From the IMG/VR virus record IMGVR_UViG_3300009499_000013, positions 1 to 52,767 of that record: a stretch of 52,767 bases of DNA. The stretch is one strand, 5' to 3'. This stretch comes from a virus (lineage: Duplodnaviria; Caudoviricetes). Below are positions 287 to 47,645 of this stretch, in pieces. Positions within the stretch are counted from its first letter, which is position 1. Each line of letters opens with the position of its first letter. Position numbers and translations under genes: made by a program. The notes under the pieces are model-generated. The model ran no database searches. It was not told the origin of the DNA and saw only the letters and a program-made list of their open reading frames with translations.

Positions 287-814
287 CTATCCCTGGATGA
301 ACCAAACAAATGCATCCTCAAATCTGTTCTTTCTGATGAACCTGAGACGCGACTTTATCTCTTCGCCTGAACGAATGACGCTTGTTGATACCCTTGAGTC
401 GTTAATGCACACGACACCATCTCCTGATTCATCTGGTAAGACAAGCGTGTAATGTCCGATTATCGCATCACGCGCATCGCGCCCATAATCATCGTCTGGT
501 CTCCAATACAAAAGAACAACGGCACAGTTCTTACATCTGAGATGCCCAATTATGCTAGCATACGTTGGCAAGCGCCTCTTTTTGATGACTGCAACGCTTC
601 CAAACAGCTTTCTAACCGCTTTGTCAAAATTTGTTATCGACGTTCCCATGATTGGGGTTGTTCGACTGAGCCCAACCAGCTGGTCATGATGCTTTTTGAT
701 TGAAAAACGATACCCAAGCCACTTACCCAGGTTGATTAATGCTGTTGGGCCACATGAATAGCTCGTTCGTTGTCTTGTGTATCTGGGCACCTTCATCCGT
801 TTATTCTTTTTCAC
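287..814 (-). CDS. C39-like cysteine peptidase
   Basis: Q-x5-C motif (QRTSYSCGPTAL), then GHYTLV and IND: a papain-like C/H/D triad. Confidence 0.75.
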   Translation of the reverse strand: MKKNKRMKVPRYTRQRTSYSCGPTALINLGKWLGYRFSIKKHHDQLVGLSRTTPIMGTSITNFDKAVRKLFGSVAVIKKRRLPTYASIIGHLRCKNCAVVLLYWRPDDDYGRDARDAIIGHYTLVLPDESGDGVVCINDSRVSTSVIRSGEEIKSRLRFIRKNRFEDAFVWFIQG

Positions 815-1578
815 ATCGTCTCCGTCCTATCTTCCTCGTCTCTAAGGAATCGCTCAATAAAATCACGGTTCTGAGAAAAGATTGGTGCCTCACTAACGAC
901 CCATGTTGAACGAACGACAGAATTCACGACGTTATCGTTCAACTTTTCTTTTAAGACAACATTTCCACGCTTGAACCCAGCATCATAATCATTCCAATTG
1001 ACACCCTTTTTAAGCATGAGCATATCCATCATCTGTGTTCTGTTCATGCCATGAAGTTCTTTGTGAGAAAAATGGGCCTGTGCAGCCATGCTTATGCTAT
1101 TTCTTTCACAATCACGCTGTCTCCAAATGAAATAATTCGTGACCTCTTCACGCGGGATGTTAAAGCACCTCGCATCGAAGATGGGAAGTTGCCCTTCACG
1201 CGCTCGGTCTGGAAAGTGCATGATGAACTCACGTGCAAACGCAGACGTTGCAGATGCAGCAGCAACAGAGCATATCTTCTGCACCTGATTTGCGAACCAC
1301 GGCTCACTGTTTAGTGTTCGAAAATCTGTCAAAAGCAACGACACCTCATCAGACTGATGATAAGCAATCCTACAGTTCTGTGCTTCAGCAGCCAATCGGC
1401 GAGCAACTGCCTTCATACATACCGTCATTCTATCATCAAACGGTTTATTCATCCCTCGCGTTAGATTGCTGAAATTTTTCCCATCAACACGAACGATGAC
1501 TGGCGATCGTCTCATAAGAGTGTGTTGTGAGACAGCCTCGTACCCCTTCATCCTATTGAAAAACGCATCATCGACCAC
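811..1578 (-). CDS. thg1: tRNA(His) guanylyltransferase Thg1-like protein
   Basis: VRVDGKNFS, KPFD, YHQSDEVSLL, FDAR, YFIWRQRDCERNS, GVNWNDY motifs. Confidence 0.93.
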   Translation of the reverse strand: MVDDAFFNRMKGYEAVSQHTLMRRSPVIVRVDGKNFSNLTRGMNKPFDDRMTVCMKAVARRLAAEAQNCRIAYHQSDEVSLLLTDFRTLNSEPWFANQVQKICSVAAASATSAFAREFIMHFPDRAREGQLPIFDARCFNIPREEVTNYFIWRQRDCERNSISMAAQAHFSHKELHGMNRTQMMDMLMLKKGVNWNDYDAGFKRGNVVLKEKLNDNVVNSVVRSTWVVSEAPIFSQNRDFIERFLRDEEDRTETM

Positions 1579-4315: not shown

Positions 4316-5035
4316 TCATCTTTTACGACGAAAGACAGAGTCGATGATGGCCTGTTCTTTAGCAGAAAACTCATCATCATCAACATCTATTGACTCAGCA
4401 ACAAGCTTTTTGAAATCTTTCACCTTCATCTTAATCATTTCTTTTGATTTTACTATCGGTGCAGTGCTTTCTTTGATGCTGGCTACTTTTTTCTTTATTT
4501 CTACATGCTTTTTAACAGCTTCTCTGTTAATGTGTTCAGCTACTGATTTTGTTTGAGCTACCTTCTGCTGTGCATTTTCATGCTGTTTTTGCTGTTTTGG
4601 CTGTGAAAGAGTTTGCGGCTGTAGTTGTGGTTTTAGTTGTTGCTTCACAATGGGTTTAGCCATCGATGCCTCAACATTTATTTGCTGCTGTTCAATTACG
4701 CTAGAATGTGTTGCTTGTTGTATCGTTTCTACTTGTACAGACATCGGTCTGACAAAATTTGCATCAAATTGAACTGGGGTAAAGTATCTACCGTCGATAA
4801 TGACTTCAACAAGAGCTTTATACGTTCCTTCATCAAATCCCTTACTCTCCATGCTAGGGACGATAAACTTATGCATACCGTCATCATTTTGCTTACCCTT
4901 AACGACATATGCATTCTCTAAATTCTCAAACACCAACCTAACAGCTGACGGTTCTTTACTTGAGCCCTTTATTGCAACCTTTAAAAGTAACTCATTTGTT
5001 TCATTGAGATTTAAGACTATTTTTTCGTCAGTCAT
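4316..5035 (-). CDS. hypothetical, probable virion protein
   Basis: Ig-like N-terminus, Q-rich linker, late-type TACTTA motif upstream. Confidence 0.6.
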   Translation of the reverse strand: MTDEKIVLNLNETNELLLKVAIKGSSKEPSAVRLVFENLENAYVVKGKQNDDGMHKFIVPSMESKGFDEGTYKALVEVIIDGRYFTPVQFDANFVRPMSVQVETIQQATHSSVIEQQQINVEASMAKPIVKQQLKPQLQPQTLSQPKQQKQHENAQQKVAQTKSVAEHINREAVKKHVEIKKKVASIKESTAPIVKSKEMIKMKVKDFKKLVAESIDVDDDEFSAKEQAIIDSVFRRKR

Positions 5036-11046: not shown

Positions 11047-14000
11047 CTAGCAACGACTCCACCCACACGAGCTACATGAAACACATCCTTCGCTATAGTG
11101 AAACTTTGTGCCACCACAGCTATCACACTTCTTGACGATGTCAGTCTCTGCACCATCAACGATGTAGCCCTTAAGAACACGTGATAGCACCTTAGCGAAT
11201 GAGAACATATCGCTATCACGGTCGCCCTTCTGCAATTGCTCAACCACCTGCTGTATCGGCGCTCCTTGGCGAAGAGCAAGCGATATCATCCGTGTCATCA
11301 CAGAGTGATTCGGATTATCAAACTGTTCAACGATGTCCTTGATTGTAATATCAGACCCATTGCATATGCGTAGGTCGTATGTCGCGGCCATCGTCTTTCT
11401 TTCGTTCTTGATGATTAGGCCTCTGTCATACTTCTTCGGTATCTCAACGAATCTTGATAAACCGCCGAATATCTCATATGGCTTTTCATCAATCATGCCA
11501 ACTAGTATCGTCCACGCCTCACCCTTGATGTTTGCATGATGAATCTCACATGGAAGCTCTTTCGGCCTTGTCGTCTTTGTCGTCGCTGCAACATCATTTG
11601 TTTTAGCGCTAACGAGAACACCAGCACGGCAACCATCTCGATACACAGTGAAACCCTTACAACCGGTCTTCCATGCACGCATATAGACCTGAGCGACGAC
11701 ATCACGCGTTGTGCTAGCGGGTAGGTTGCACGTCTTGCTGAGGCTATGTTCAATCCAGCGTTGAGCAACTGCTTGAACATCAACAGATGCAACCCAATCA
11801 ACGTCGTTCGACGTCGACATATGATACGGGCTGCTCTTAACATCAGTCAGGCCAGAAACATCTCGCCAATGCTTGAACCCAGGATGAAAAACATCGTACT
11901 CTTGCCACTTGTCGCCCATCGAATCTTCAAAATCAACACGGATACCGACATCATTCTGTGTGAGCTTACGACGACGCACATACTGCAACATGTATGCGGG
12001 TTCAATACCAGACGTCGTCCTAGTCATGAGAGACACAGAGCCAGCAGGAGCAGTCGTTGTGAGACAAATGTTGCGCCGGCCGTATTTCATGAATGCCGCT
12101 CGTGTCTCAGCGTCTGATGCATCTAACAGACGTGAAATGAATTGATGTTTGACCATTCTGCTGACATCACAGATGGGAAATGCACCACGCTCAACAGCTA
12201 GTTGCACAGAGCTCTTGTTGGCTGCGACAGCCAAAGAACGATACAGCTCCTCAATCATGAGGATGCTCTCCTTTGAACCGTATCTGATGTTTAGATATGC
12301 CAATGTATCACCGACACCCGTGAGGCCCAGGCCTGTTCTGCGACCCTTGACACATGCATCCCTAATCTTCTGCCATAGCGCTGTCTCGATTGCTTTGATA
12401 TCATCAGGTTCAGGGTCAGATTCAACCTTCTTGATTATCGCATCGATGTGCTCAATCTCAATGTCGATTAAGTCATCCATCAATCTCTGTGCCTTGACTG
12501 CATGCTCGTTGAACAGCTTCAAGTCGAATGTTGCATCTTCAGTGAATGCATTTCTCACATAAGAAAGAGCATTGACAACGAGCAATCTGCAACTATCATA
12601 AGGACTTAGAACAATTTCACCACAATTTTTTACACACAAACCAGACGCTTGAATGAACTTATCGTCTGGGCTTCCAGATGTAATAACATGATAGTTGTGA
12701 TTATCATCGACAGTAATATTGAACACATCCTCATAACCGAAAAATTCAACACTAACAACCTTGTGGTTATTGATAACCCTGTCTTTAAAAGCAGAAAATC
12801 GCTTGAAACGAAATTCATTAGCAACATGACAGGGTAAGCCATGTTGCTTAGCATAGTTTGTCCATATGCTAACTGTGAGTCGTCCATTTTCTGATAAGGC
12901 TTTTCTTCCGTGCTCTATCAATTCATCATTTGTGACGCCTAAATAACGCCCATTTTTCTCACCTGGATGACTAGCGAAGTTATGTTTTTGTTCAGCAGTC
13001 ATTCTGTGATATGGATTTGCGGCACCGCGCATGCAGTCAGCATGTAATGCTCTATGCTCTTCATGCGTCATTAACTGCAAATTACTGATATTATCATTGG
13101 TGCTATCAAAATCGATATGATGAATTGCGATGTTTTTGGCGTCAACATCTCCATGATAAAACTCATTGATTAATCGATATTGGCGACGATTTCGTTTAGC
13201 TCCTCCAGCCATATCAGCACCAGTATTTGCTACCTGTCGATACCCGTTTGAATTGAATGAATAAAACGGAAAAACACTCATGCCCGCCTTGAGCTTAGAC
13301 AGCTCAACATACTCTAGCGTCTTCAACATTACTTTATGGTCAGGAGTAGCTATCAATGAGCTTCCATCATCAAGAATCAACTTCCAAACCTCTTTCATTT
13401 CTCCAGTTTTTCTAGGATTTCGACCCATTTTTATTTCAACTCGACCCGTCGTAGGATTTGTAGAATAAACGGGAACATCCTGCCCAACATCAGCTAAACT
13501 TTTAATTGAAACAGCATTTCTACCGTCAGCAACAGCTATGAGTGTCTCACCGACGATGCAGGGATTCGTCGAAACAGAACCGAACCCTTCATCTGAAAAT
13601 ATGTCAGCCGGTGTTTCACGCTTGACAGTATCCCAGAACAGAACACCCGGTTCTGCTGCGCTCCATGCTGAGTCAATTATCTTATCCCATATCTGTCGTG
13701 CTTTAACGGTGCGTGTGTAAGTTGGTTCTATTGCGTCAACAGGCCATTGAAGTGTAAAATCGCTATCATCTTCAACGGCTTTCATAAATTCATCTGATAC
13801 ACGAAGAGAGATGTTTGCACCCGTGATTTTTGTTAAGTCTTTCTTGATGTCGATGAACGTCTCGACGTCAGGATGTCTGATGTCAAGAGTAAGCATCAGT
13901 GCGCCGCGGCGGCCACCCTGTGCAACCTCGCGACATGAGTTCGAAAATCTTTGCATGAAAACTGCTATGCCATCAGTTGTTCTAGACGCATTCGACGTGA

Positions 14001-14439
14001 TAAGACCAGCAGGCCTAATTGTTGAGATGTCGAAACCCACACCCCCGCGTCTCTTCATTATCTGAACCTGTTCTTGGTCAGTGTAAAGAATGCCGCCGTA
14101 TGAGTCATACGGCGACTTGATTACAAAACAATTCGACAGGCTTTGTATGCTATAGTCGTTTCCGATTCCAGACATCGGGCTACCCTGTGGAACGATGTAT
14201 CTAAAATCTCGGAGCAGTTCAAATATCTCATCCTCAGACATCGGGTTCGGATACTTCGCCTCAATCCTAGCAAACTCACGTGCCAAACGTCTGTGCATGT
14301 CATCGGGCGTCATCTCAAGTAGTTCATGATTTTCATCACGCAACGCATACTTTTTGATGAACACATCTGCGGCCATCTCATCACCGCCGAAGTACTCAAC
14401 TGATGCAGCTAATGCGTCTTTAAAGGAAACCATCGTCAT
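11047..14439 (-). CDS. nrdJ: class II (adenosylcobalamin-dependent) ribonucleotide reductase with intein
   Basis: SLSNCFV, RRGGVG, QGGRRGA, EPGVLF, NP[intein]CGE, RRTGLG, TTAPAGS, GIEP, SKTCNLP, KGFTVYRDG; C-terminal TSCPD-like domain and Zn ribbon. Confidence 0.93.
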   Translation of the reverse strand: MTMVSFKDALAASVEYFGGDEMAADVFIKKYALRDENHELLEMTPDDMHRRLAREFARIEAKYPNPMSEDEIFELLRDFRYIVPQGSPMSGIGNDYSIQSLSNCFVIKSPYDSYGGILYTDQEQVQIMKRRGGVGFDISTIRPAGLITSNASRTTDGIAVFMQRFSNSCREVAQGGRRGALMLTLDIRHPDVETFIDIKKDLTKITGANISLRVSDEFMKAVEDDSDFTLQWPVDAIEPTYTRTVKARQIWDKIIDSAWSAAEPGVLFWDTVKRETPADIFSDEGFGSVSTNPCIVGETLIAVADGRNAVSIKSLADVGQDVPVYSTNPTTGRVEIKMGRNPRKTGEMKEVWKLILDDGSSLIATPDHKVMLKTLEYVELSKLKAGMSVFPFYSFNSNGYRQVANTGADMAGGAKRNRRQYRLINEFYHGDVDAKNIAIHHIDFDSTNDNISNLQLMTHEEHRALHADCMRGAANPYHRMTAEQKHNFASHPGEKNGRYLGVTNDELIEHGRKALSENGRLTVSIWTNYAKQHGLPCHVANEFRFKRFSAFKDRVINNHKVVSVEFFGYEDVFNITVDDNHNYHVITSGSPDDKFIQASGLCVKNCGEIVLSPYDSCRLLVVNALSYVRNAFTEDATFDLKLFNEHAVKAQRLMDDLIDIEIEHIDAIIKKVESDPEPDDIKAIETALWQKIRDACVKGRRTGLGLTGVGDTLAYLNIRYGSKESILMIEELYRSLAVAANKSSVQLAVERGAFPICDVSRMVKHQFISRLLDASDAETRAAFMKYGRRNICLTTTAPAGSVSLMTRTTSGIEPAYMLQYVRRRKLTQNDVGIRVDFEDSMGDKWQEYDVFHPGFKHWRDVSGLTDVKSSPYHMSTSNDVDWVASVDVQAVAQRWIEHSLSKTCNLPASTTRDVVAQVYMRAWKTGCKGFTVYRDGCRAGVLVSAKTNDVAATTKTTRPKELPCEIHHANIKGEAWTILVGMIDEKPYEIFGGLSRFVEIPKKYDRGLIIKNERKTMAATYDLRICNGSDITIKDIVEQFDNPNHSVMTRMISLALRQGAPIQQVVEQLQKGDRDSDMFSFAKVLSRVLKGYIVDGAETDIVKKCDSCGGTKFHYSEGCVSCSSCGWSRC
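12625..13560 (-). mobile_element. 312-aa intein with HNH endonuclease in the RNR active site
   Basis: starts CIVGETLI after STNP; block B ATPDHKV; HHIDFDSTNDNISNLQL HNH motif; DVFNITVDDNHNY; ends VKN|CGEI. Confidence 0.92.
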
Positions 14440-15695
14440 TCATCCTCACCAGAGCTTGAACCATTGGCTACCTTGTTGATGCTTCTTAAAGACACCATCC
14501 TGTCTGCTGAGACCTGCTCCCATTTGTCTTTAAGGAGCTGTTTCATTCCTGTGTCTGCACTCATTTGGAAATCCTCTAAATCAACGTTCGCGTCAAGCAC
14601 TTCAATGATTGAGCGTGATGTGTCTATCTTACCAGGAAAAATGATGCCGTCCTTACCGAGTCTGCTTTTTGGAATGAAAATGTTGCAGAGACCCTTCGCC
14701 TTCTGTATCGGTTTCCTAGATAATGAGATGATGAAATCACAAATCATCGCCTTACCATAGCTTTCTGATATCTTGTCTAGGCCGACGACATCAGTGTCAG
14801 AACCATCGCGATTCACCTGACTCGCTGTCCAGATTGGAACATTGAGCTCCATTGCAAGTGTGCGCAGCTCTTCATAAACCAGCTTAAGCTCATGTCGAAG
14901 AGAATCAAACTGCCTAGATGACCTCATGATGTCAGCGTAGTCAATGATGATTACGTCAGGCCTAAATGACTTTGTGATTGCGAGCTTTTCGATGTGCGCC
15001 TTCAGCATCATGATTGTAGCCGTGCTGGTTGGATACTCCTTAATGATTAAACGACCCCAGTTAGACTTGTTCGATTCATAATGCGTTCTGATGAACTCTT
15101 TTTCATCAGGCACATCAGTCGCACTCACATTTGAGAGGTTTGAGTCATATCGGATACCGACCTTCTTCTCAGAAAGCTCGAACGTATAATGAAGAACATT
15201 TCGACCAGACTTCACAGCATTCGCTCCCAACTGAACGAGAAAATGTGAATTATGAGAAAGAATGTCATTCGTGTAAAAGCAATGAGTATCAGCAACTTGT
15301 AAATCAAATAGGGACTCATTTTCAATAACTGTCTCATTCGATTCAACAACAACTGCCGTATAGCCACCCCTAACAACTATTAAATCACCTTTAATAACAT
15401 TTTGTGCATACTTCCATCCGACAGTTGTTAAAACATTATGTTTAAATGCACACTCAAGCGACATTGCACCAAGCATTTCATGCATAACAGTAAGTCGCCA
15501 TATTGGAAGATGCTCTGTTTTTCTGAAACCCTCAACTTGCTTAAAACAATCATTTTTCGTAGAAGCATCATACGATAAAATTTGTATATCGAAATTTGCT
15601 GACACTTCAATGTTTTCACCAGAAATCTTAAGCTCATCAAAGAGCGCACTCAAACTAACATCACGTTCAACAATATTACGGCTGATTGATAGCAT
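14436..15695 (-). CDS. replicative helicase C-terminal half, fused to C-intein
   Basis: likely ATG at 15695 with GAGG RBS; after ILSHN come SHFLVQ, HYTFELSE, IIDYADIM, WTASQVNR, KSRLG (DnaB/gp41 motifs). Confidence 0.9.
   Translation of the reverse strand: MLSISRNIVERDVSLSALFDELKISGENIEVSANFDIQILSYDASTKNDCFKQVEGFRKTEHLPIWRLTVMHEMLGAMSLECAFKHNVLTTVGWKYAQNVIKGDLIVVRGGYTAVVVESNETVIENESLFDLQVADTHCFYTNDILSHNSHFLVQLGANAVKSGRNVLHYTFELSEKKVGIRYDSNLSNVSATDVPDEKEFIRTHYESNKSNWGRLIIKEYPTSTATIMMLKAHIEKLAITKSFRPDVIIIDYADIMRSSRQFDSLRHELKLVYEELRTLAMELNVPIWTASQVNRDGSDTDVVGLDKISESYGKAMICDFIISLSRKPIQKAKGLCNIFIPKSRLGKDGIIFPGKIDTSRSIIEVLDANVDLEDFQMSADTGMKQLLKDKWEQVSADRMVSLRSINKVANGSSSGEDE
15249..15695 (-). mobile_element. 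split intein C-fragment (149 aa)
   Basis: block B-like CAFKHNVLTTVGWK, block F LFDLQVADTHCFYTN, terminal SHN|S. Confidence 0.9.
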
Positions 15696-16824
15696 TTTTA
15701 ACCTCAAAAATAACTTCTGACCGACGATAACACCAATCTTTACCACGCACAACGATAACGTTATAGCCAGCATCAGTTAATGCTTTTAGTTTTAAGTTGT
15801 CATGTTCCCACATCTGTTTAGCGGTTAATTTTGTGCGTGGATGAACCCATGTAGGAGAAAATGCGTCTGCATGTGGATGCCAAAATTCTCCCATATATTC
15901 GACGATAACACGTTTAACGGGAAAAACAATATCACAGTTATATGTTAAAACTCTTATATTTGTTTCAATAAGCTCATCACAAAATTGTTCTTTTAAAACG
16001 TTTTGAAGCTCAATTTCACCAGATGAACGATTATAAAATGCTTTAGGCATATTTGCAGCAATCTGTTCTTTAACGTCAGCTGTGTGATGTTTCCCAAACA
16101 TCGGATGCTTTTCATTCGTGCGTCCGTAACATGGCGTTAGTTTAACTGCTTCATCAATAGAAATACCAGCTCTTGTTGCAATTGATACTAATGACATCGG
16201 ATTTTTATCACCCAACATCGCTTCAGAGCGTGCATTAAGAGTTTCAGGTTTATTGTTTTGACAAAGACTAGCTTTAATTTGAAACTCTTTAACACACTCT
16301 TTTGCTTCGTCAAATGAAAACCCTTTTCTTACCCAATGTTTTATTTCTGACGGAAACGAGCGCCAATCAAGAAAGGCAGCTCGTACAGTCGGGTCTTTAA
16401 ATTTTTCTTTAGCATTTTTTGAAGCTTTTTCTCTATCTTCTGTTGCTGTTCTTTGAATAATGCAGTTAGGATATTTTAGCTTATACTCTTTGCCTGTAAT
16501 GTTATGTCTTCTATTAATGTGAGACACAATAGATGAAGCAGTCTCAAATCCACAAATTTTACATACGATTTTATCAGTCCAACAGCGATTTTCTTTAGCT
16601 TCTTTTGCAGCAATGTTTTTTCTATAAACAGAATTATAGTCTCGTCTGTCATCACTCATCTTTTGCTTAACAGCATCAGAAAATCGAAATACAACTTTCG
16701 CTGGATATAAAAGTTTATACTCAGCAATCGTTATGTTGTGTCGCTTAATGATATGTGTTATTAAATTGCTGTCTGCTTCAAATCCACAGATAGCACATGA
16801 TAACGTATCAGACCAGCTCATCAT
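15676..16824 (-). CDS. free-standing homing endonuclease (C2H2 fingers, NUMOD3-like motif, Vsr/EDxHD-like nuclease)
   Basis: CAICGF...THIIKRH and CKICGF...SHINRRH; HPMFGKHHT; SSGEIEL...CDIV...IVEYMGEFWH...DNLK; AT-rich. Confidence 0.85.
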   Translation of the reverse strand: MMSWSDTLSCAICGFEADSNLITHIIKRHNITIAEYKLLYPAKVVFRFSDAVKQKMSDDRRDYNSVYRKNIAAKEAKENRCWTDKIVCKICGFETASSIVSHINRRHNITGKEYKLKYPNCIIQRTATEDREKASKNAKEKFKDPTVRAAFLDWRSFPSEIKHWVRKGFSFDEAKECVKEFQIKASLCQNNKPETLNARSEAMLGDKNPMSLVSIATRAGISIDEAVKLTPCYGRTNEKHPMFGKHHTADVKEQIAANMPKAFYNRSSGEIELQNVLKEQFCDELIETNIRVLTYNCDIVFPVKRVIVEYMGEFWHPHADAFSPTWVHPRTKLTAKQMWEHDNLKLKALTDAGYNVIVVRGKDWCYRRSEVIFEVKNAINQP

Positions 16825-17608
16825 CTTCTCGAATATCACTCACAATGATATTTCCTCGTTTTGTCATAACAAACTGCCAAGGATAATATGCTTTTCCATT
16901 AATCAAAACTTGTTCATGTTTAATATGAACAATTGAATTACCACGAGCGCATTTGCCGACGCCAGTGCCGGCCAAGATGCAACCCAGTTCTCCACCACCC
17001 AAGCCACCATTCATCACATCACGTGTGTCAAGATGTGCTAGACCGGTTGCGACAGTCGTTCTGTTCTCTTTAACGAAGCGTGCCTCTGCGTCCTCAAAAA
17101 AATCGTGGCCAGCAGTGTTGGGTGTGCCGACAGTGATTGCTGACTTGATTCGACCGACAATCTCTTCATAACGCTCATTCTTCGTCAAATCGACTGCTTC
17201 TTCAAGAGCATGCTTAAGCGCTTGGTTCTTACAAAAATTTAAAGACCTATCCTTCACCCACGGGAGGTCATTGATGTTTGGATTGCTCTTAAGCCCACCA
17301 AGGAATGAAACGACCTGAGCACACATCACCTCATCGTTTCCCTCACTGAGCTGGTCGCGTGCCATCGTGGCAAGAAGCGTGATTGAAGGAAACGTTTTAT
17401 ACGTCTGATAATGTCTCTGATAGATGTCAAACAGGTATCGAAGGTGTGCAACCTCGAAATACTCAAGCTTAAGAACCTCCATCATCTGCTGCGACCAGGC
17501 ATGGTCTGACAAGAGCGCCTGAATCACTCGTTCTTGGAAAGGACGACCGAACGACTTAAAAGAAACATCACCTTCATCAGCTGACATCAATGACCTCGAA
17601 AAAAACAA
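16808..17608 (-). CDS. replicative helicase N-terminal half, fused to N-intein
   Basis: TGLAHLD...GGLGGGELGCILAGTGVGK (Walker A, cut before the Ser) then CARGNSIV...; start may be the ATG at 17587. Confidence 0.9.
   Translation of the reverse strand: MFFSRSLMSADEGDVSFKSFGRPFQERVIQALLSDHAWSQQMMEVLKLEYFEVAHLRYLFDIYQRHYQTYKTFPSITLLATMARDQLSEGNDEVMCAQVVSFLGGLKSNPNINDLPWVKDRSLNFCKNQALKHALEEAVDLTKNERYEEIVGRIKSAITVGTPNTAGHDFFEDAEARFVKENRTTVATGLAHLDTRDVMNGGLGGGELGCILAGTGVGKCARGNSIVHIKHEQVLINGKAYYPWQFVMTKRGNIIVSDIREDDELV
16811..16951 (-). mobile_element. split intein N-fragment (47 aa)
   Basis: GK|CARGNSIVHIK block A at the classic P-loop insertion site; stop codon follows. Confidence 0.85.
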
Positions 17609-18598: not shown

Positions 18599-18865
18599 TC
18601 ATTCATTGACGGCGGGCCTGATGTAGCATCCGGAGCCATCATTTTTACAGATAAGGTTTATGAACATTGGAATATATCCAACCTTTGTGCTAACAGTGCA
18701 ATGTGATATCGGCCCAGGGTAGTCATTGACACAACTGCGCCGGCTAGCATCGATGCCCATCTCGCTCAGCCAAATGTCGACAGACTTTTCAGGAATAGAC
18801 TTATATTTCATATCACATCCGAAAAGTAAAACAAATGCAGCTAGATGAATAATCTTAGAAGTCAT
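18599..18865 (-). CDS. small putative lipoprotein
   Basis: signal peptide with lipobox-like LLFGC; Cys-rich. Confidence 0.6.
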   Translation of the reverse strand: MTSKIIHLAAFVLLFGCDMKYKSIPEKSVDIWLSEMGIDASRRSCVNDYPGPISHCTVSTKVGYIPMFINLICKNDGSGCYIRPAVNE

Positions 18866-19014
18866 GATAACACCCTATCTGTGTCTGTGAATGTTTGAAG
18901 TCCATGAGCCGCAGCTATATCATTTGAGCGTTTGATATCATCAACAAGCCTCTTCTTATAGTCAAATAGATGCTTTTTACGCTCATCAGCGGTCATCCGT
19001 GATAAAATTTTATA
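18862..19014 (-). pseudogene. orphaned 3' part of the gene starting at 20017, separated by inversion
   Basis: YKILSRMTADERKK...DRVLS* is in frame with TAT at 20302-20304 once 19012-20304 is reversed; ATGA overlap with 18865. Confidence 0.65.
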
Positions 19015-19223
19015 ATCTAGATAAGAGACTCTACGACGACTTTATAAAGAACCTCGGGCACAGCCTCTGGTATGACGTTAGTACTAACATCGGCAACAAT
19101 CTTGCGATTAGTCTTAGGGACAGCTTCTGGGTGCATCGAGATCAGAGCATCATGGATGATATTAGTGACAATCTCCGAAACGTCAGAAACATTCATGATT
19201 CTGAAGTGACCAACAATGCGTGA
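18999..19223 (+). CDS. small paralog-array protein (original start lost at inversion junction)
   Basis: YNLDKRLYDDF...GHSLW...RDSFW; ends NNA* overlapping the next ATG. Confidence 0.6.
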   Translation: MIKFYNLDKRLYDDFIKNLGHSLWYDVSTNIGNNLAISLRDSFWVHRDQSIMDDISDNLRNVRNIHDSEVTNNA

Positions 19224-19421
19224 CTTGAACGAGAAACTCGAGAACAGCTCTGGGACAGTCTTGAGCACAGCCTCATGGACAGCCTCAGGGACAGCCTTGG
19301 GAATAGCCTCGGATTCAGTCTTGGGTGCAACCTCAGTGACAGCCTCAAGAACAGTCTTGGAAACAACCTTACACAAACCACACAGAACGAACAGAGCGTT
19401 GAGGAGACCAACGATGCGTGA
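19216..19421 (+). pseudogene. paralog-array unit with 1-nt deletion near 19248
   Basis: the alternative frame gives WDSLEHSLMDSLRDSLGNSL...QNEQSVEETNDA*, matching the next unit. Confidence 0.7.
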
Positions 19422-19580
19422 CTTGAACAAGAAATTCGGGAACTGTCTCAGGGACAACCTCTGGGTCAGCATCGCAAACAACCTCGGAAACAGTCTCAGG
19501 GACAGCCTCTGGAACAACAACCTCTGGGACAACAGCTTCGGGCACAGCCTCGGGCACAGCCTCGAGCACAGCCTCGAGCA
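19240..19580 (+). repeat. degenerate 12-bp tandem repeat (ACAGCCTCNNGN)
   Basis: many cagcctc/cagtct copies with 12-nt period. Confidence 0.8.
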
Positions 19581-19626
19581 AACCGCACAGAACGAACAGA
19601 GCGTCAAAGAGACGAACGATGCGTGA
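19414..19626 (+). CDS. paralog-array protein with xxSL tetrapeptide repeats
   Basis: MRDLNKKF...GNSLRDSLW...GHSLGHSLEHSLEQ; GAGGAG RBS. Confidence 0.75.
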   Translation: MRDLNKKFGNCLRDNLWVSIANNLGNSLRDSLWNNNLWDNSFGHSLGHSLEHSLEQTAQNEQSVKETNDA

Positions 19627-19828
19627 CGTGAACAAGAAATTTGAGAAAGTTTTTAGAGATGAAGTTTCACATAACATTTGGCCCGATGTTAAAAACACAC
19701 TCATTAATGCGTTTTTTATTGAGCTTACTTTTGGTCGCAGCGAACACAGTAATCTTGGCATCTGTGATGGTCTCATTGAATGTTTAAGCGACAATCATAA
19801 AAAAGATGATGGAATGTCAAATGCATGA
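19619..19828 (+). CDS. paralog-array protein
   Basis: MRDVNKKF start; ATGCGTGA overlap. Confidence 0.7.
   Translation: MRDVNKKFEKVFRDEVSHNIWPDVKNTLINAFFIELTFGRSEHSNLGICDGLIECLSDNHKKDDGMSNA
19770..19826 (+). repeat. 57-bp repeat, inverted copy at 20303-20359
   Basis: 56/57 identical; both copies encode LIECLSDNHKKDDGMSNA. Confidence 0.95.
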
Positions 19829-20024
19829 CGTGAATGATAAATTTGAGATTGAATTAATTGAAGCCACTAGTAGTTTTGTAAATGTGAATTTGTTCGAACG
19901 CAACAGTTTTAAACACATCTACATCTATAGTAATTTTGAACATTTTTATAAACTTGGTTTAGACATAGAAATCAACAAAAAAATTAACAAGATAGCGAAA
20001 AGAGATGAGAACACAGATGAGTGA
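19821..20024 (+). CDS. paralog-array protein
   Basis: MHDVNDKFEIEL resembles MRDKNDEFEISL; ATGCATGA overlap. Confidence 0.7.
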   Translation: MHDVNDKFEIELIEATSSFVNVNLFERNSFKHIYIYSNFEHFYKLGLDIEINKKINKIAKRDENTDE

Positions 20025-20334
20025 TTTTGAAATTGTTCAAGCAATCGACAGTCTCACGACAGAAATAAAAGCATTGCGAGATGCAATCGAGGCATCTGAA
20101 AAGGAAAGACTAGCGAAGCAAATGAAAAGTAAAGAGCGTTCTGGTCGATATAGTTCTGCAGTTGATGCCGGCTATCTTGGCGAGCTTTTGATTGAGATGA
20201 TGATATCAACTTTTTTGCGTGAAAAAGAAATTGATGTTTTTTTGTCTAAACCATTCTATGTCAGATGGTTTGATGATAGCGACTACAAATATTACTCAAG
20301 CTATGCATTTGACATTCCATCATCTTTTTTATGA
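20017..20334 (+). CDS. hypothetical protein, truncated/chimeric at inversion junction 20304
   Basis: MSDFEIVQ...; last 10 aa read from the antisense strand of the repeat. Confidence 0.65.
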   Translation: MSDFEIVQAIDSLTTEIKALRDAIEASEKERLAKQMKSKERSGRYSSAVDAGYLGELLIEMMISTFLREKEIDVFLSKPFYVRWFDDSDYKYYSSYAFDIPSSFL

Positions 20335-20508
20335 TTGTCACTTAAACATTCAATGAGACAATTACAAAGAATATCGCTAGTGATGTCGCTGAGGTAGTAC
20401 CTAATCTTGAATATAAGACTGCTGTTGAGGTTGTAATTACTGATGACTTCATCAAGTCCATTACCGATTGATGAAGTTGTTATGTAGTCTCTCATTCAAG
20501 TTACGCAT
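20301..20508 (-). pseudogene. paralog-array unit with frameshift
   Basis: family start MRNLNERLHNNFINR* stops early; the body GNGLDEV...MSNA* is in another frame. Confidence 0.6.
20303..20359 (-). repeat. 57-bp repeat, second copy
   Basis: reverse complement of 19770-19826 with one mismatch. Confidence 0.95.
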
Positions 20509-20716
20509 CGTTTGACCATTCGTTGCTTCGAGTACGAATATTTGTTTGTACATCTGACACAAGGTTACTCCAAAGACTGCTTCGAAGCATAAAATTTATG
20601 TTTGATTGATTGACGTCATGACCGATATCATCGATATTACCGTGCATCTTTTCACGCATGCAACGCCACAAATCATGATGAAGGTCGTCAATGAATCTTT
20701 GATACATGTCAATCAT
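20501..20716 (-). CDS. paralog-array protein
   Basis: MIDMYQRFIDDL...RSSLWSNL...SNDA*; 8-nt overlaps at both ends. Confidence 0.7.
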   Translation of the reverse strand: MIDMYQRFIDDLHHDLWRCMREKMHGNIDDIGHDVNQSNINFMLRSSLWSNLVSDVQTNIRTRSNEWSNDA

Positions 20717-20882
20717 CAGACTTCTCATCACTCTTGGAGTTCATTAGCTCAAGACTATGAACAAGCTCGTGTTGAAAATTATGGACAAAACGTAAGACAT
20801 CCCTATATCCAAGTAAATTTATAAAATCAGCTCTAAAGTTTGGAATCAAGCTAATTTCAAATTCATCATTCTTGTCACGCAT
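20709..20882 (-). CDS. paralog-array protein
   Basis: MRDKNDEFEISL; ATGCGTGA overlap with the HTH gene. Confidence 0.7.
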   Translation of the reverse strand: MRDKNDEFEISLIPNFRADFINLLGYRDVLRFVHNFQHELVHSLELMNSKSDEKSDD

Positions 20883-21195
20883 CACTGAAAATCTCAGAGC
20901 TAGACACAGCATCATCCTGTGGGATGGGTTGAAACTCAATATCACTCAATTGAGATTCGGCCGCCCAGGCAAGAGAAGCAACCTCACGCAACGTAATGTC
21001 GTCGTCACCATCAAGAATGTCGTTAATTCTATTCAATGAAATTCCCGTTCGAAGAGAAACGTCTGCACGGTTGATGCCCTTTTCCTGATAGAGCCCATAC
21101 AGCTCCTCCTTGACTGCCAGTATCAGCTTCTCTTCAAGAAGAAGTCTCTTCTGCGTTGGTGTCTTAAAGAGTTCGTTAAAGAGTTCGTCTTTCAT
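20875..21195 (-). CDS. XRE-family helix-turn-helix regulator
   Basis: EKGINRADVSLRTGISLNRINDILDGDDDITLREVA; GGAG RBS before ATG 21195. Confidence 0.8.
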   Translation of the reverse strand: MKDELFNELFKTPTQKRLLLEEKLILAVKEELYGLYQEKGINRADVSLRTGISLNRINDILDGDDDITLREVASLAWAAESQLSDIEFQPIPQDDAVSSSEIFSDA

Positions 21196-21196
21196 A

Positions 21197-21742
21197 TCAT
21201 CTCCCAGTTGAGCCGAAGCCCTTGTTCCCGCGTTTCGTTTGTTTGACCTCATCGACAAGCTCAAACTCGATGCTCGGAGCGATGAGACTGACGTAGAAAA
21301 CCATCTGTGCGATGCGGTCTCCAACGTTGATTGTGTAATCGTTACCTGACATATTGGCCAGTGTGATTCGCAGCTCTCCACGGTATGTGGGGTCAATCAC
21401 GCCACCAACTGGAAAGATACCCTTGATACCCAATGACGAACGCCCCTCAATCTTTGGCCACACCGTCAGGTTCTCAATGAACATGACATCGCCAGCGACG
21501 TACTGTGAGCCCTGCCCAGGATGGTCGCACTCATTTTCTCGCGGAAGAAACACTGTGTCTTCATGAGAATGAAGCCTGATATGGGGTTGATAATGAGCGA
21601 TGTATAGACCCGTATCAACGGGCAAAATTCTACCCGTGGGTATCATCACTTCCTCTGTTGAGTATAGGTCGAAGCCGATATCATCCTTAGATTGTGAAGG
21701 AAGACGAGCCTTTGAAGATGAAAGCTTCAGCTGAATCTGCAT
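21197..21742 (-). CDS. dut: trimeric dUTPase
   Basis: GFDLYS, GRSSLG, GVIDPTYRGE, GDRIAQ, RGNKGFGSTG. Confidence 0.95.
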   Translation of the reverse strand: MQIQLKLSSSKARLPSQSKDDIGFDLYSTEEVMIPTGRILPVDTGLYIAHYQPHIRLHSHEDTVFLPRENECDHPGQGSQYVAGDVMFIENLTVWPKIEGRSSLGIKGIFPVGGVIDPTYRGELRITLANMSGNDYTINVGDRIAQMVFYVSLIAPSIEFELVDEVKQTKRGNKGFGSTGR

Positions 21743-21774: not shown

Positions 21775-22311
21775 TCAATGCTGAACATTCGATGTAATGG
21801 GACCGTCACACATGATTGTCAGCGACACACGACATGGCTTGTCGTCGCTGTAGTCAAGCGTCGTCATAAAGACATCCTTGACCCAAGCATCGTGCATGTG
21901 CCACACTCGAATGTCATGGCCCATTGCATCTAGCAACCTGATTGTGAACATGAACCTGCGACCCTGCGCGAGTGTGCTACCCTGACACAGGTTATCGACA
22001 AGCGTGCTCATATCATGACAATCTGCAAGAGTGATATAAAGCGGCTCATACGTTCTATTACCACTCTTGTCTATATGAAAGCACGGTTGTGTCACTTTTA
22101 TGACAAGATACGGTGCAATTTCAGGAATTTCGACGATGAAGCGATTAGAGGTAATCGACGCTACATGTTCATCAACTGACTGTTCTGTTGATTGTTCGAC
22201 GACATCTGGGCGAGCAACAGCACGCATTCGCTTCATATCCCTGAAGCCCTCTAAAGCTAGAACAAAAAAAAGCGCCAATAAAAATCCCATAATACCCGAC
22301 ACAATCATCAT
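21775..22311 (-). CDS. tail-tube (gp19-like) paralog with N-terminal transmembrane helix
   Basis: aligns by eye with 47157-47645 (NRFIV/FRWIL, YEPLYITLAD/WQPMAIELYD, LLDAMG/MLDPVG, WVKDV/WPKDI, LDYS/LSYD); hydrophobic residues 3-20. Confidence 0.7.
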   Translation of the reverse strand: MMIVSGIMGFLLALFFVLALEGFRDMKRMRAVARPDVVEQSTEQSVDEHVASITSNRFIVEIPEIAPYLVIKVTQPCFHIDKSGNRTYEPLYITLADCHDMSTLVDNLCQGSTLAQGRRFMFTIRLLDAMGHDIRVWHMHDAWVKDVFMTTLDYSDDKPCRVSLTIMCDGPITSNVQH

Positions 22312-29563: not shown

Positions 29564-30223
29564 TTAAAGCTTCGAAGGGGCGGCATCGAACAACGACGTT
29601 CGCATCTTTTCACACTGCGTCGACCATCTATCTGCCCAATGAACAATCAACGCAAGTGATGGCTCTTTCATACCGTATTCTCGATTACCCTCAGCATACA
29701 TCCCATCATTCAAGAGCACTGAGAGATATTCATCCTCCGACAACTTCACGCCAAATTGGCTCATCGTGAACAGACCAAGCTGTGAGTTTGGCATGCGGAT
29801 TGAATCATTCTTGCGATACATCTGACCCTGCTTGTTATGCCACTGGCTGTCTTGCATGACGTAGTAATCAGCGTCAAGCGTACCAACCTTACCCCAATCA
29901 TGAAGTGCAGCAGCGATGATGATGCTATCCTTCGATGACTTCACATTAAGAGCCGCCGAGATATTGATTGCAGTCCTTAAGACTCTTAATGAGTGGTCGA
30001 TGAACCCACCCGGAAATGCATTATGAAACTCAATCCGCGTCGACGCTGGAGCAATGCACGCCCTTTCACCGAAATGATTGAGCATCTCCTTCAGCTGTGG
30101 AGCCCTTGCACCAGTCTGCTCAAGCAATCCGTTGAATGAATCCCAGTTTTCTTTGATTTTTTGAAAATGCTCTTCACTCTTCCATGTTGCCTTTATTTTC
30201 GATATTTCTGAATCATCAAACAT
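29564..30223 (-). CDS. HD-domain phosphohydrolase
   Basis: APAS..FH.AFPGG..DHS, LHDWGK, HWAD. Confidence 0.85.
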   Translation of the reverse strand: MFDDSEISKIKATWKSEEHFQKIKENWDSFNGLLEQTGARAPQLKEMLNHFGERACIAPASTRIEFHNAFPGGFIDHSLRVLRTAINISAALNVKSSKDSIIIAAALHDWGKVGTLDADYYVMQDSQWHNKQGQMYRKNDSIRMPNSQLGLFTMSQFGVKLSEDEYLSVLLNDGMYAEGNREYGMKEPSLALIVHWADRWSTQCEKMRTSLFDAAPSKL

Positions 30224-47156: not shown

Positions 47157-47645
47157 TCAGTACTGTAAGCACGCGTTATCGAATCTCACTAACATAGTGA
47201 TTGTAGCAGCATCATTATTGTCGTAAGACAGTTCGTTATAGTTGATGTCTTTCGGCCAACAACCTTTGATCTCCCAAAGCTCTATAGCCGTACCGACTGG
47301 GTCCAGCATCAAAAGTTGAATGTCTCTCTTGTAGAAGTCAGCGTAGCCAGCTCTACCAGAGATGCTCTCAAAGTTCAAACGAATCCACTCTTCAACCTGC
47401 TGTGCCCCCGACGGCGCGATTGGGTCATAGAGCTCAATCGCCATCGGTTGCCAGTCATGCTTACCAGCGAGGTAGCGCTTGCTGTTAATCCAATCGACTG
47501 CAATCTCTTCAAAGACGCGTTGTGGGCGCGCAGTGCTCTTTGCGAGGAAGGCATCGATACCCTCAACACGTAATATCCATCTAAACTTTCTTTTGGGTTC
47601 GAAGGCGTTCGGTATCATGTCGCTGACATCAAGTGTTTCAGCCAT
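47157..47645 (-). CDS. tail tube protein (T4 gp19-like)
   Basis: FEPKRKFRW, GKHDWQPM.IELYDPI, LDPVG...WEIKGCWP, LSYD; AGGAG RBS. Confidence 0.9.
   Translation of the reverse strand: MAETLDVSDMIPNAFEPKRKFRWILRVEGIDAFLAKSTARPQRVFEEIAVDWINSKRYLAGKHDWQPMAIELYDPIAPSGAQQVEEWIRLNFESISGRAGYADFYKRDIQLLMLDPVGTAIELWEIKGCWPKDINYNELSYDNNDAATITMLVRFDNACLQY

Follow-up and report, generated by a model that had tools for sequence, protein, structure and literature searches.

A predicted operon of eight paralogous small genes in an island of a T4-like phage

T4-type phages carry hyperplastic regions, clusters of small, non-essential ORFan genes between core genes, in which PeSL cassettes, each an early sigma-70-like promoter and a terminator stem-loop between small open reading frames (ORFs), have been proposed as recombination sites that mediate shuffling (Arbiol et al., 2010; PMC2839356). 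Here, we describe an array of eight paralogous small genes, units U1 to U8, at positions 18999-20945 of a viral DNA fragment of 52,767 nt (IMG/VR record IMGVR_UViG_3300009499_000013; the whole fragment is called the window below). We interpret the array as a real operon of an unannotated protein family, composed of three-part units and located in an accessory island, and taken as a whole we consider this explanation moderately probable. Like the PeSL regions, the locus places short conserved regulatory sequences between small ORFan genes amid T4-like core genes. Unlike them, its cassette is a translational junction (a Shine-Dalgarno (SD) tail, an 8-nt stop/start overlap and the first eight codons) without intergenic space, and its genes are mutually paralogous; promoter-like and terminator-like sites occur at chance level in a scan of the region (10 vs 8.0 ± 2.6 and 2 vs 2.7 ± 1.9, respectively).

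Other described systems share further features with the array. The locus of the T4 internal proteins (IPI-III) is polymorphic and encodes small proteins with a common short N-terminal signal, and the T4 prohead protease cleaves at the motif (L/I)xE. The array likewise comprises several small variable proteins sharing a short N-terminus in a T4-type phage; it lies, however, in the replication module, and the LxE site is not general in the units (LNE is found in U2 and in some units of another contig, LNK in most units). Pentapeptide-repeat proteins (A[D/N]LXX) resemble the units in their long unbroken runs of short repeats centred on Asp/Asn-Leu, but the units have a period of 4.0 instead of 5, no Pfam pentapeptide match, and a helical model instead of a beta-helix. 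The acr-aca operons also combine small unannotated phage genes with a helix-turn-helix (HTH) protein in one operon. Typically, their HTH gene is not upstream and translationally chained, whereas that of the array comes first and is chained by overlap, and the units are paralogous repeat proteins. Finally, DUF6745 proteins, known from bacteria as well as phages, contain the same type of tetrapeptide, with the same R/W/G alternation after the leucine and in the same reading frame; the units differ from these proteins in lacking both the PF20530 domain of ~200 aa and the N-terminal domain, in standing alone at 57-102 aa, and in having an octapeptide of their own.

Paralogy and anatomy of the units

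The original prediction, made by a model from the sequence alone, had placed about eight related small ORFs in this region, and all eight (57-74 aa) were recovered at the predicted places. In local alignments, 11 of the 28 unit pairs outscore all 300 composition-preserving shuffles made per pair, in contrast to none of 38 control pairs built with the neighbouring proteins G6, XRE-like, g44 and g88 (3 of 300 shuffles reached the score of the closest control pair), and the alignments join all units in a single network. The similarity extends beyond the junctions: when the first and last eight residues are trimmed, seven of the eight units keep at least one partner at z ≥ 4.4 (U2-U3, 9-11; U4-U8, 9-10; U1-U3, U1-U4, U2-U7 and U3-U6, 4-6.5), while U5 reaches 2.6 at best. 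A profile of the units recovers all eight and has no other match at E < 0.01 in the window. The predicted paralogy holds, and we take the genes to be eight paralogues that form a real operon of an unannotated small phage protein family.

The first gene of the island, at 20875..21195 on the minus strand, encodes an XRE-like HTH protein of 106 aa, and its stop codon overlaps the start of U6 (ATGCGTGA). Its predicted place at the head of the chain stands; the assignment as an XRE regulator is weak (PHROG 1373 'transcriptional regulator', E 1.2e-5; Pfam HTH_26 at 18.2 bits with a cut-off of 22 and HTH_3 at 17.6 bits with a cut-off of 23, both sub-threshold). On the same strand lie U6 (20709..20882), a diverged unit of 57 aa (profile E 1.3e-16; z 9.2 to U3 and 6.5 to U5), U7 (20501..20716; 71 aa; profile E 1.9e-15), which starts at the junction ATGATTGA and occurs as an identical protein (P0010) on seven contigs, the longest of 182 kb, and U8 (20301..20508), which starts at ATGCGTAA. 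The plus strand holds the body of U1 (19015..19223), the clean xxSL unit U2 (19216..19421), U3 (19414..19626), a canonical unit of 70 aa with N-terminal motif, xxSL repeats and the tail ..QSVKETNDA, U4 (19619..19828; 69 aa), and U5 (19821..20024; 67 aa), the most diverged unit, which is tied to the family via its ends and U6 and has an orthologue of 67% identity (P0009). A non-paralogue, G6 (20017..20334, plus strand), is joined to U5 by ATGAGTGA.

Chaining by 8-nt ATGnnTRA overlaps had been predicted as well, and eight such overlaps are present in the window (plus-strand starts at 19216, 19414, 19619, 19821 and 20017; minus-strand starts at 20508, 20716 and 20882). The overlap is a habit of the whole phage and no hallmark of the array: the ATGNNTRA motif has 132 sites across the window, compared to 93.7 ± 8.5 in 100 shuffles that never reached 132, and the same overlap joins gene pairs outside the array, e.g. 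at 5028-5035 and 30216-30223.

Motif statistics were derived from 46 unit starts. The units begin with the octapeptide M-[RH]-[DN]-[LMV]-N-[KE]-K-[FL], in which synonymous codons are mixed (GAC 22/GAT 16, AAC 27/AAT 11, AAA 25/AAG 13, TTT 16/TTC 15) and conservation at codon positions one to three amounts to 1.04, 1.36 and 0.78 bits. Given this free synonymous variation and the least information at the third position, the motif is constrained as protein. The body consists of 5-20 [DNH]-S-[LIF]-[RGWE] tetrapeptide repeats, which are encoded by 12-nt DNA repeats and have decayed to varying degree; D, N or H precede S[LIF], and R (61), G (50), E (30) or W (28) follow it. In U2 and U3, tandem tracts of the 12-nt repeat (19244..19598, plus strand; consensus ACAGCCTCNGGG) encode [DNH]-S-L-[RGWE] repeats, with 14 copies in register and 94% matches at period 12, and GC content is 56% at 19400-19599 in the repeat tract vs 27.5% at 19800-19999.

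The third part of the unit is a tail of the type ..Q-S-V-E-E-T-N-D-A, the ending of which the original prediction had listed as a feature shared by the proteins. As a protein feature, this ending is not supported. The GAGGAG codons of the tail constitute an SD sequence 7 nt ahead of the next ATG, and the last two residues are imposed by the overlap with the next start. Given that the [x][DN]A end tracks the presence of an overlapping next unit (19 of 20 such units, vs 0 of 19 units that end a run), the conserved tail mostly serves the following cistron as its translation initiation region. The tail (..EETNDA) would therefore be a clear case of seeming protein conservation caused by the ribosome-binding site and start of the following gene. 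Four copies of a 44-nt junction family with 64-86% identity are present in the window.

The units had also been proposed to be small helical proteins. An AlphaFold2 model of U3, built from a 54-row alignment, is indeed a helical hairpin, if only at a predicted local distance difference test score (pLDDT) of 68 and a predicted template modelling score (pTM) of 0.31; Foldseek returned no match for it in the PDB, and the ESM Atlas only unnamed viral clusters at 0.87-0.88, short of lead level. The hydrophobic period of the bodies is exactly 4.0 (power 1.34 vs 0.18 for period 5). The units are mildly acidic (net charge -3 to -8), and DNA mimicry was dropped as a candidate function given a median charge of just -3.

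Regarding coding, the proposed frame has the best codon-usage score in six of the eight units, and the alternative frames of U4-U8 are rich in stops. The repeat composition leaves three sense and two antisense frames open, and two antisense ORFs (19017-19607 and 19369-19794) were rejected as by-products of the stop-free repeat. We consider it highly probable that the array is coding.

An inverted block and the native order

In the window, plus-strand and minus-strand units converge, and the original prediction had adopted this layout. It is not native: contigs from other runs show a co-directional chain. We aligned contigs of four public runs (the RNA libraries X11 and X16 and the DNA runs X5 and X7, from three studies) to positions 18600-21400. 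An opposite-strand joint, 19014>20301, is found at full local depth in X11, X16 and X7; in X5 and X7, contigs reach U1 at 19012 out of 28 unmatched bases, and an X5 contig reaches the other junction, 20304, out of 31 unmatched bases. The joints and unmatched contig ends indicate that a block of 1,287 bp (19015..20301), whose ends share 3 nt of microhomology and are not flanked by an inverted repeat, has the opposite orientation in those samples. Re-inversion by script yields a single minus-strand chain of the XRE-like gene, U6, U7, U8, U1, U2/U3, U4, U5, an ORF of 145-149 aa (G6 plus g44), the 88-aa gene g88 and the endonuclease gene.

Re-inversion is supported by the fact that two genes, U1 and the 145-aa gene, become whole. 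The stop of U8 and the start of U1 then form the ninth ATGnnTRA overlap, ATGCATAA, and U1 begins with the canonical MHNLDKRL; its real start codon is located at 20306-20308 on the minus strand, and the GTG at 18999, upstream of U1 in a window that offers this gene no ATG, is fortuitous. G6 provides the N-terminal 95 codons of the 145-aa gene, its codons past 20301 being fortuitous, and the C-terminal part ('g44' plus six linking codons) lies at 18862..19014 on the minus strand, as read from the restored order and from fused homologues. The protein collection contains the fused protein at 100% identity (P0058, on three contigs) and two forms that are 85-86% identical (P0059 and P0060, on two and eight contigs, respectively). 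X7 and part of X5 carry a 6-nt insertion at 20276 and a cluster of substitutions at 20232-20276 in the 145-aa gene, matching the 147-aa proteins P0059 and P0060.

Two further units are damaged in the window. U8 has lost 5 nt at 20466/20467 and is frameshifted after 15 codons, leaving a 64-aa remnant that starts at an ATG within the gene (20495); all four runs have, at full depth, five additional bases after 20466, which restore U8 to its intact form (P0012). U2 carries a 1-nt deletion near 19247-19248, with an in-frame piece at 19224-19421, and 19216-19626 consequently reads as a single ORF of 136 aa in which U2 is fused to U3. The runs show no indel at this position, the X5 and X7 contigs agree with the window, and the fused frame recurs in P0050, which comes from a different assembly. 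Programmed frameshifting in U2 was dropped, as no slippery heptamer is visible at 19240-19252.

The variant in the window combines a decapitated U1, a U8 frameshifted by a private 5-nt deletion and a split 145-aa gene. A true strain variant is favoured over assembler error, because the probable source run contains a fraction of 0.99 of the sampled words. We dropped the idea of a site-specific invertible segment: the block ends have no inverted repeats, no invertase was found, and the other four runs show one orientation at full depth. The convergent layout reflects an inversion, specific to a strain or to the assembly, by which two genes are split; this matters for annotators of this record.

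The family beyond the window and changes within the array

The prediction of an expanding and diverging small-protein family with conserved junctions is borne out beyond the window. A profile search of 1.84 billion representative proteins yielded 47 proteins at E ≤ 1e-3, of which 17 are small (60-136 aa), and 11 of these 17 do not come from the window. Identical units occur on contigs of 81-182 kb. On another metagenome contig, which was assembled twice with the same sequence over the common part, 39 units start within 26 kb; they share one strand, fall into 14 runs and show 20 exact overlaps of 8 nt. Of these copies, 36 are intact ORFs (44-102 aa), and one unit is frameshifted, the intact form of which is found elsewhere (P0052). 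Scattered among the units are ORFans, a DUF6745 gene, and genes for two HTH proteins and a kinase-like ATPase; besides the units, the stretch has nothing in common with the window. At 7491-8036 of contig L031, an 8-nt overlap of the same kind links in a protein of 182 aa; its N-terminus, MHDINKKL, is the unit motif, while its body is unrelated and matches no family.

Searches of annotated collections gave little. The units have no match in Pfam (seven scanned), PHROGs or NCBIfam, and Rfam has none in the region. PADLOC, which covers defence and not anti-defence, matched none of six window units (U3-U7 and the intact U8, P0012) and neither of two units from the other contig; the XRE-like protein gave a marginal match (E 0.0086). 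In IMG/VR, the junction pattern had no matches and none of 90 matches to a unit-alignment pattern was confirmed, with very near records possibly lying outside this search; the 145-aa gene found nothing there either. The junction pattern matched nine times singly in 185,579 species genomes, and since none of these places has a unit by profile (best E 0.27) we attribute the matches to chance; no host was found in this way. Twenty-six flap-endonuclease (FEN) loci of related phages contain no unit (best E 0.73), and tblastn with one unit against GenBank phages, low-complexity filter on, gave no match. Literature searches returned nothing for six repeat peptide strings and nothing relevant on phage tetrapeptide or multigene families. 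By these comparisons, we regard this family of small phage proteins as new, unnamed and unannotated; on another contig it has grown to dozens of copies.

Only the relation to DUF6745 is informative: 20 of the 30 long profile matches carry PF20530 after a [DA]-[SN]-L-[RWG] tract. An example of such proteins is one of 425 aa from Caudoviricetes sp. MW202476. The sole GenBank phage match of the region is also a DUF6745 protein, and the DUF6745 gene of the other contig is located within its 39-unit array. The tract is frequent in DUF6745 proteins and not universal: P0049 lacks it, as does gp174 of the Microcystis phage Ma-LMM01 (L044), a homologue encoded in the replication module between DNA polymerase genes and a uracil-DNA glycosylase gene. 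A literature search found no paper mentioning DUF6745; the relation would tie the unit family to the repeat tract of a domain family for which no literature was found.

Within the array, change is visible at the repeats and at the junctions. Strain variants of U3 differ in the number of 12-nt repeats (P0054 is 8 aa shorter) or have a rearranged tract (P0050). U4 and U8 are 40-67% identical across ~150 nt and 90-100% identical over their last 64 nt. An arm of an inverted repeat at 19763..19839 (77 nt, 90%; partner at 20290-20366) corresponds to this common 3' end plus the junction, and in the native order it is a direct repeat. The pattern indicates a recent exchange at the 3' end and junction of the units, and the mosaic ends are what recombination at unit ends would be expected to leave behind. 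We infer that the array grows and is shuffled by slippage of the 12-nt repeat and by recombination between junction cassettes of ~60 nt, and it may serve to illustrate how such arrays are built and eroded by these two processes.

The middles of the units had been called hypervariable, which is true of paralogues and not of strains: U6-U8 are identical across the four runs apart from one indel, and the samples do not differ in the units except within the repeat tract. Mutagenesis by a diversity-generating retroelement was rejected, given that Pfam detects no reverse transcriptase domain in the 54 ORFs of the window and strains show no variation. For U1, U2, U3 and U7, units of the other contig score higher than the neighbouring units do; the paralogues are therefore old and not the product of a recent local burst. 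At 19258-19633, the summed contig depth in X5, X7, X11 and X16 is 4-18x that of the flanks, with many joints that skip or go back and with loose ends that have the junction in common before they diverge. The raised depth and the diverging loose ends indicate that the metagenomes contain many more family members than the eight described here.

The array belongs to a 2.6-kb island (the XRE-like gene, the eight units, the 145-aa gene and g88) between the dUTPase and flap-endonuclease genes of this uncultured phage. In the closest relative, L005 (endonuclease 67% identical), these flanking genes are separated by only 334 nt with one 73-aa ORF, and the array is absent. As a relative with the same flanking genes has no array, the island is in all likelihood accessory and dispensable.

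Competing explanations and genomic setting

In the explanation we favour, the units would be translated sequentially by termination-reinitiation coupling along a long operon, slippage and recombination between cassettes would expand and shuffle the array, and the proteins would be non-essential accessory factors. It is likely that the unit proteins act as proteins at all. As to how, our leading guess, and a tentative one, is that each unit is a free-standing copy of the tract located between the two domains of DUF6745 proteins, and that the units act on whatever this tract binds, by binding or competing for its partner. A role against host defence is possible. We also entertain, as a speculation more doubtful than probable, that the 12-nt repeat and the portable junction cassette constitute a gene nursery minting small genes, the products being stand-alone DUF6745-type tracts that would serve as diversified binders or decoys, or as N-terminally addressed injected proteins. 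If true, this nursery would have produced eight genes here and at least 39 on another contig, possibly with an unseen fold (given the exact four-residue hydrophobic period) and with an undescribed host or phage target.

Several observations weigh against the favoured explanation. Codon-usage scores of the units (0.05-0.25) are below the phage mean of 0.33, and for U2 and U3 the antisense frame scores slightly above the sense frame. Contigs of the RNA libraries span most of the region but are strandless and may derive from DNA, and the gap at ~19070-19257 in X11 and X16 carries no weight. Every sample seen has the frameshift in U2, the window has damaged copies of U8 and U1, and the other contig contains a frameshifted unit; these broken copies fit weak selection. 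The U3 model is of moderate quality, and a hydrophobic period of 4.0 instead of 3.6 is awkward for a simple amphipathic helix. The likeness between the units and the DUF6745 tract is of low complexity and could be due to convergence, and the six frames of the window (~15% of the genome) contain no PF20530 match.

Some of these points also feed the strongest of the competing explanations, in which the units are functionless, self-propagating repeat ORFs: repeats and junction cassettes duplicate easily, are tolerated in a hyperplastic region, and decay. The cassette supplies an SD sequence, an overlapping start and A-rich early codons, the repeat frames are open by composition in both directions, the island is missing from the closest relative, codon-usage scores are low, and decay is evident in U2, in the 5-nt deletion of U8, in the decapitated U1 and in the frameshifted unit whose intact form, P0052, exists elsewhere. 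Mere junk would, however, not be expected to retain the N-terminal motif as protein with synonymous turnover, or to remain intact in 36 of 39 copies on the other contig; the diverged, non-repetitive U4-U8 remain open although their alternative frames are closed, and several window units resemble units of the other contig more closely than they do their neighbours, implying that copies have long been kept. We judge this explanation unlikely. At the opposite end, the ORFs might be incidental to a DNA or RNA element of the replication module, with the 12-nt repeats acting as iterons, for example. The GC-rich tract beside an AT-rich stretch and the antisense scores of U2 and U3 would suit such an element, but the octapeptide varies at third codon positions, ORF boundaries are conserved in 39 + 8 copies, five of the eight window units keep their frame with little or no repeat, the repeat is read in the same frame within annotated DUF6745 proteins, and Rfam is silent, leaving the non-coding explanation close to refuted.

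Two other explanations accept the proteins and differ in their role. The original prediction had suggested possible anti-defence, decoy or host-takeover factors; in an arms race, each unit would inhibit or distract a different host immune protein, with the XRE-like gene as an Aca-like repressor. Small, mildly acidic proteins in a variable island beside an HTH gene, and a family so largely expanded and diverged, are in keeping with this idea. It is, however, rather improbable: the units have no homology to any annotated family, their invariance across four runs and three studies, bar one indel, indicates no ongoing diversification at the strain level, the HTH gene precedes the units in a translational chain, an arrangement that is not typical of acr-aca operons, and broken copies are tolerated. 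Alternatively, the units could be packaged in the virion and injected like the T4 internal proteins, the octapeptide serving as a capsid-targeting signal and the bodies countering the host on entry. A protein-conserved N-terminus on highly variable bodies would be expected of such a signal, the 182-aa protein of the other contig joins the same N-terminus to an unrelated body, and the phage has T4-type sheath, tube, baseplate, gp32 and UvsX genes. Set against this, the (L/I)xE site is present in some units only and replaced by LNK in most, and the array is chained to dUTPase and HTH genes in the replication module with no head genes nearby, so that packaging strikes us as improbable indeed.

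The window, at a CheckV completeness of 15%, has nearly all of its genes on the minus strand. Pfam and PHROG scans indicate a T4-like myovirus, with genes for a tail sheath, two gp19-like tube proteins, a T4 baseplate protein and gp32, and further for a RecA/UvsX-like recombinase, dUTPase, 5'-3' flap endonuclease, DnaB-like helicase, ribonucleotide reductase, ThyX and Thg1. No cultured phage is close, the best RecA match being 37% identical (Microcystis phage Mel-JY01). The phage's DNA is present in runs from 13 studies; samples of wastewater, groundwater, sludge and marine origin are among them.

A few neighbouring genes are unusual in their own right. The DnaB-like helicase (14436-17608, minus strand) is spread over three ORFs and looks like the site of an intein or homing-endonuclease insertion: in the same scans, the N-terminal part lies at 16808-17608, a NUMOD3/zinc-finger homing-endonuclease-like ORF at 15676-16839, and the C-terminal part, with a weak intein-splicing match, at 14436-15773, all on the minus strand. 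The adjacent ribonucleotide reductase (11047-14439, minus strand; 1,130 aa) is interrupted at residues ~304-584 by an intein that includes an HNH endonuclease, and it has a TSCPD domain at its C-terminus. The gp19-like tail-tube paralogues are encoded at 21775-22311 and 47157-47645, both on the minus strand, and one of them is oddly placed in the replication module, between the RecA/UvsX and dUTPase genes. Lastly, a Thg1-like tRNA-His guanylyltransferase gene (811-1578, minus strand; Pfam E 5e-32) adjoins those for thymidylate kinase and ThyX.

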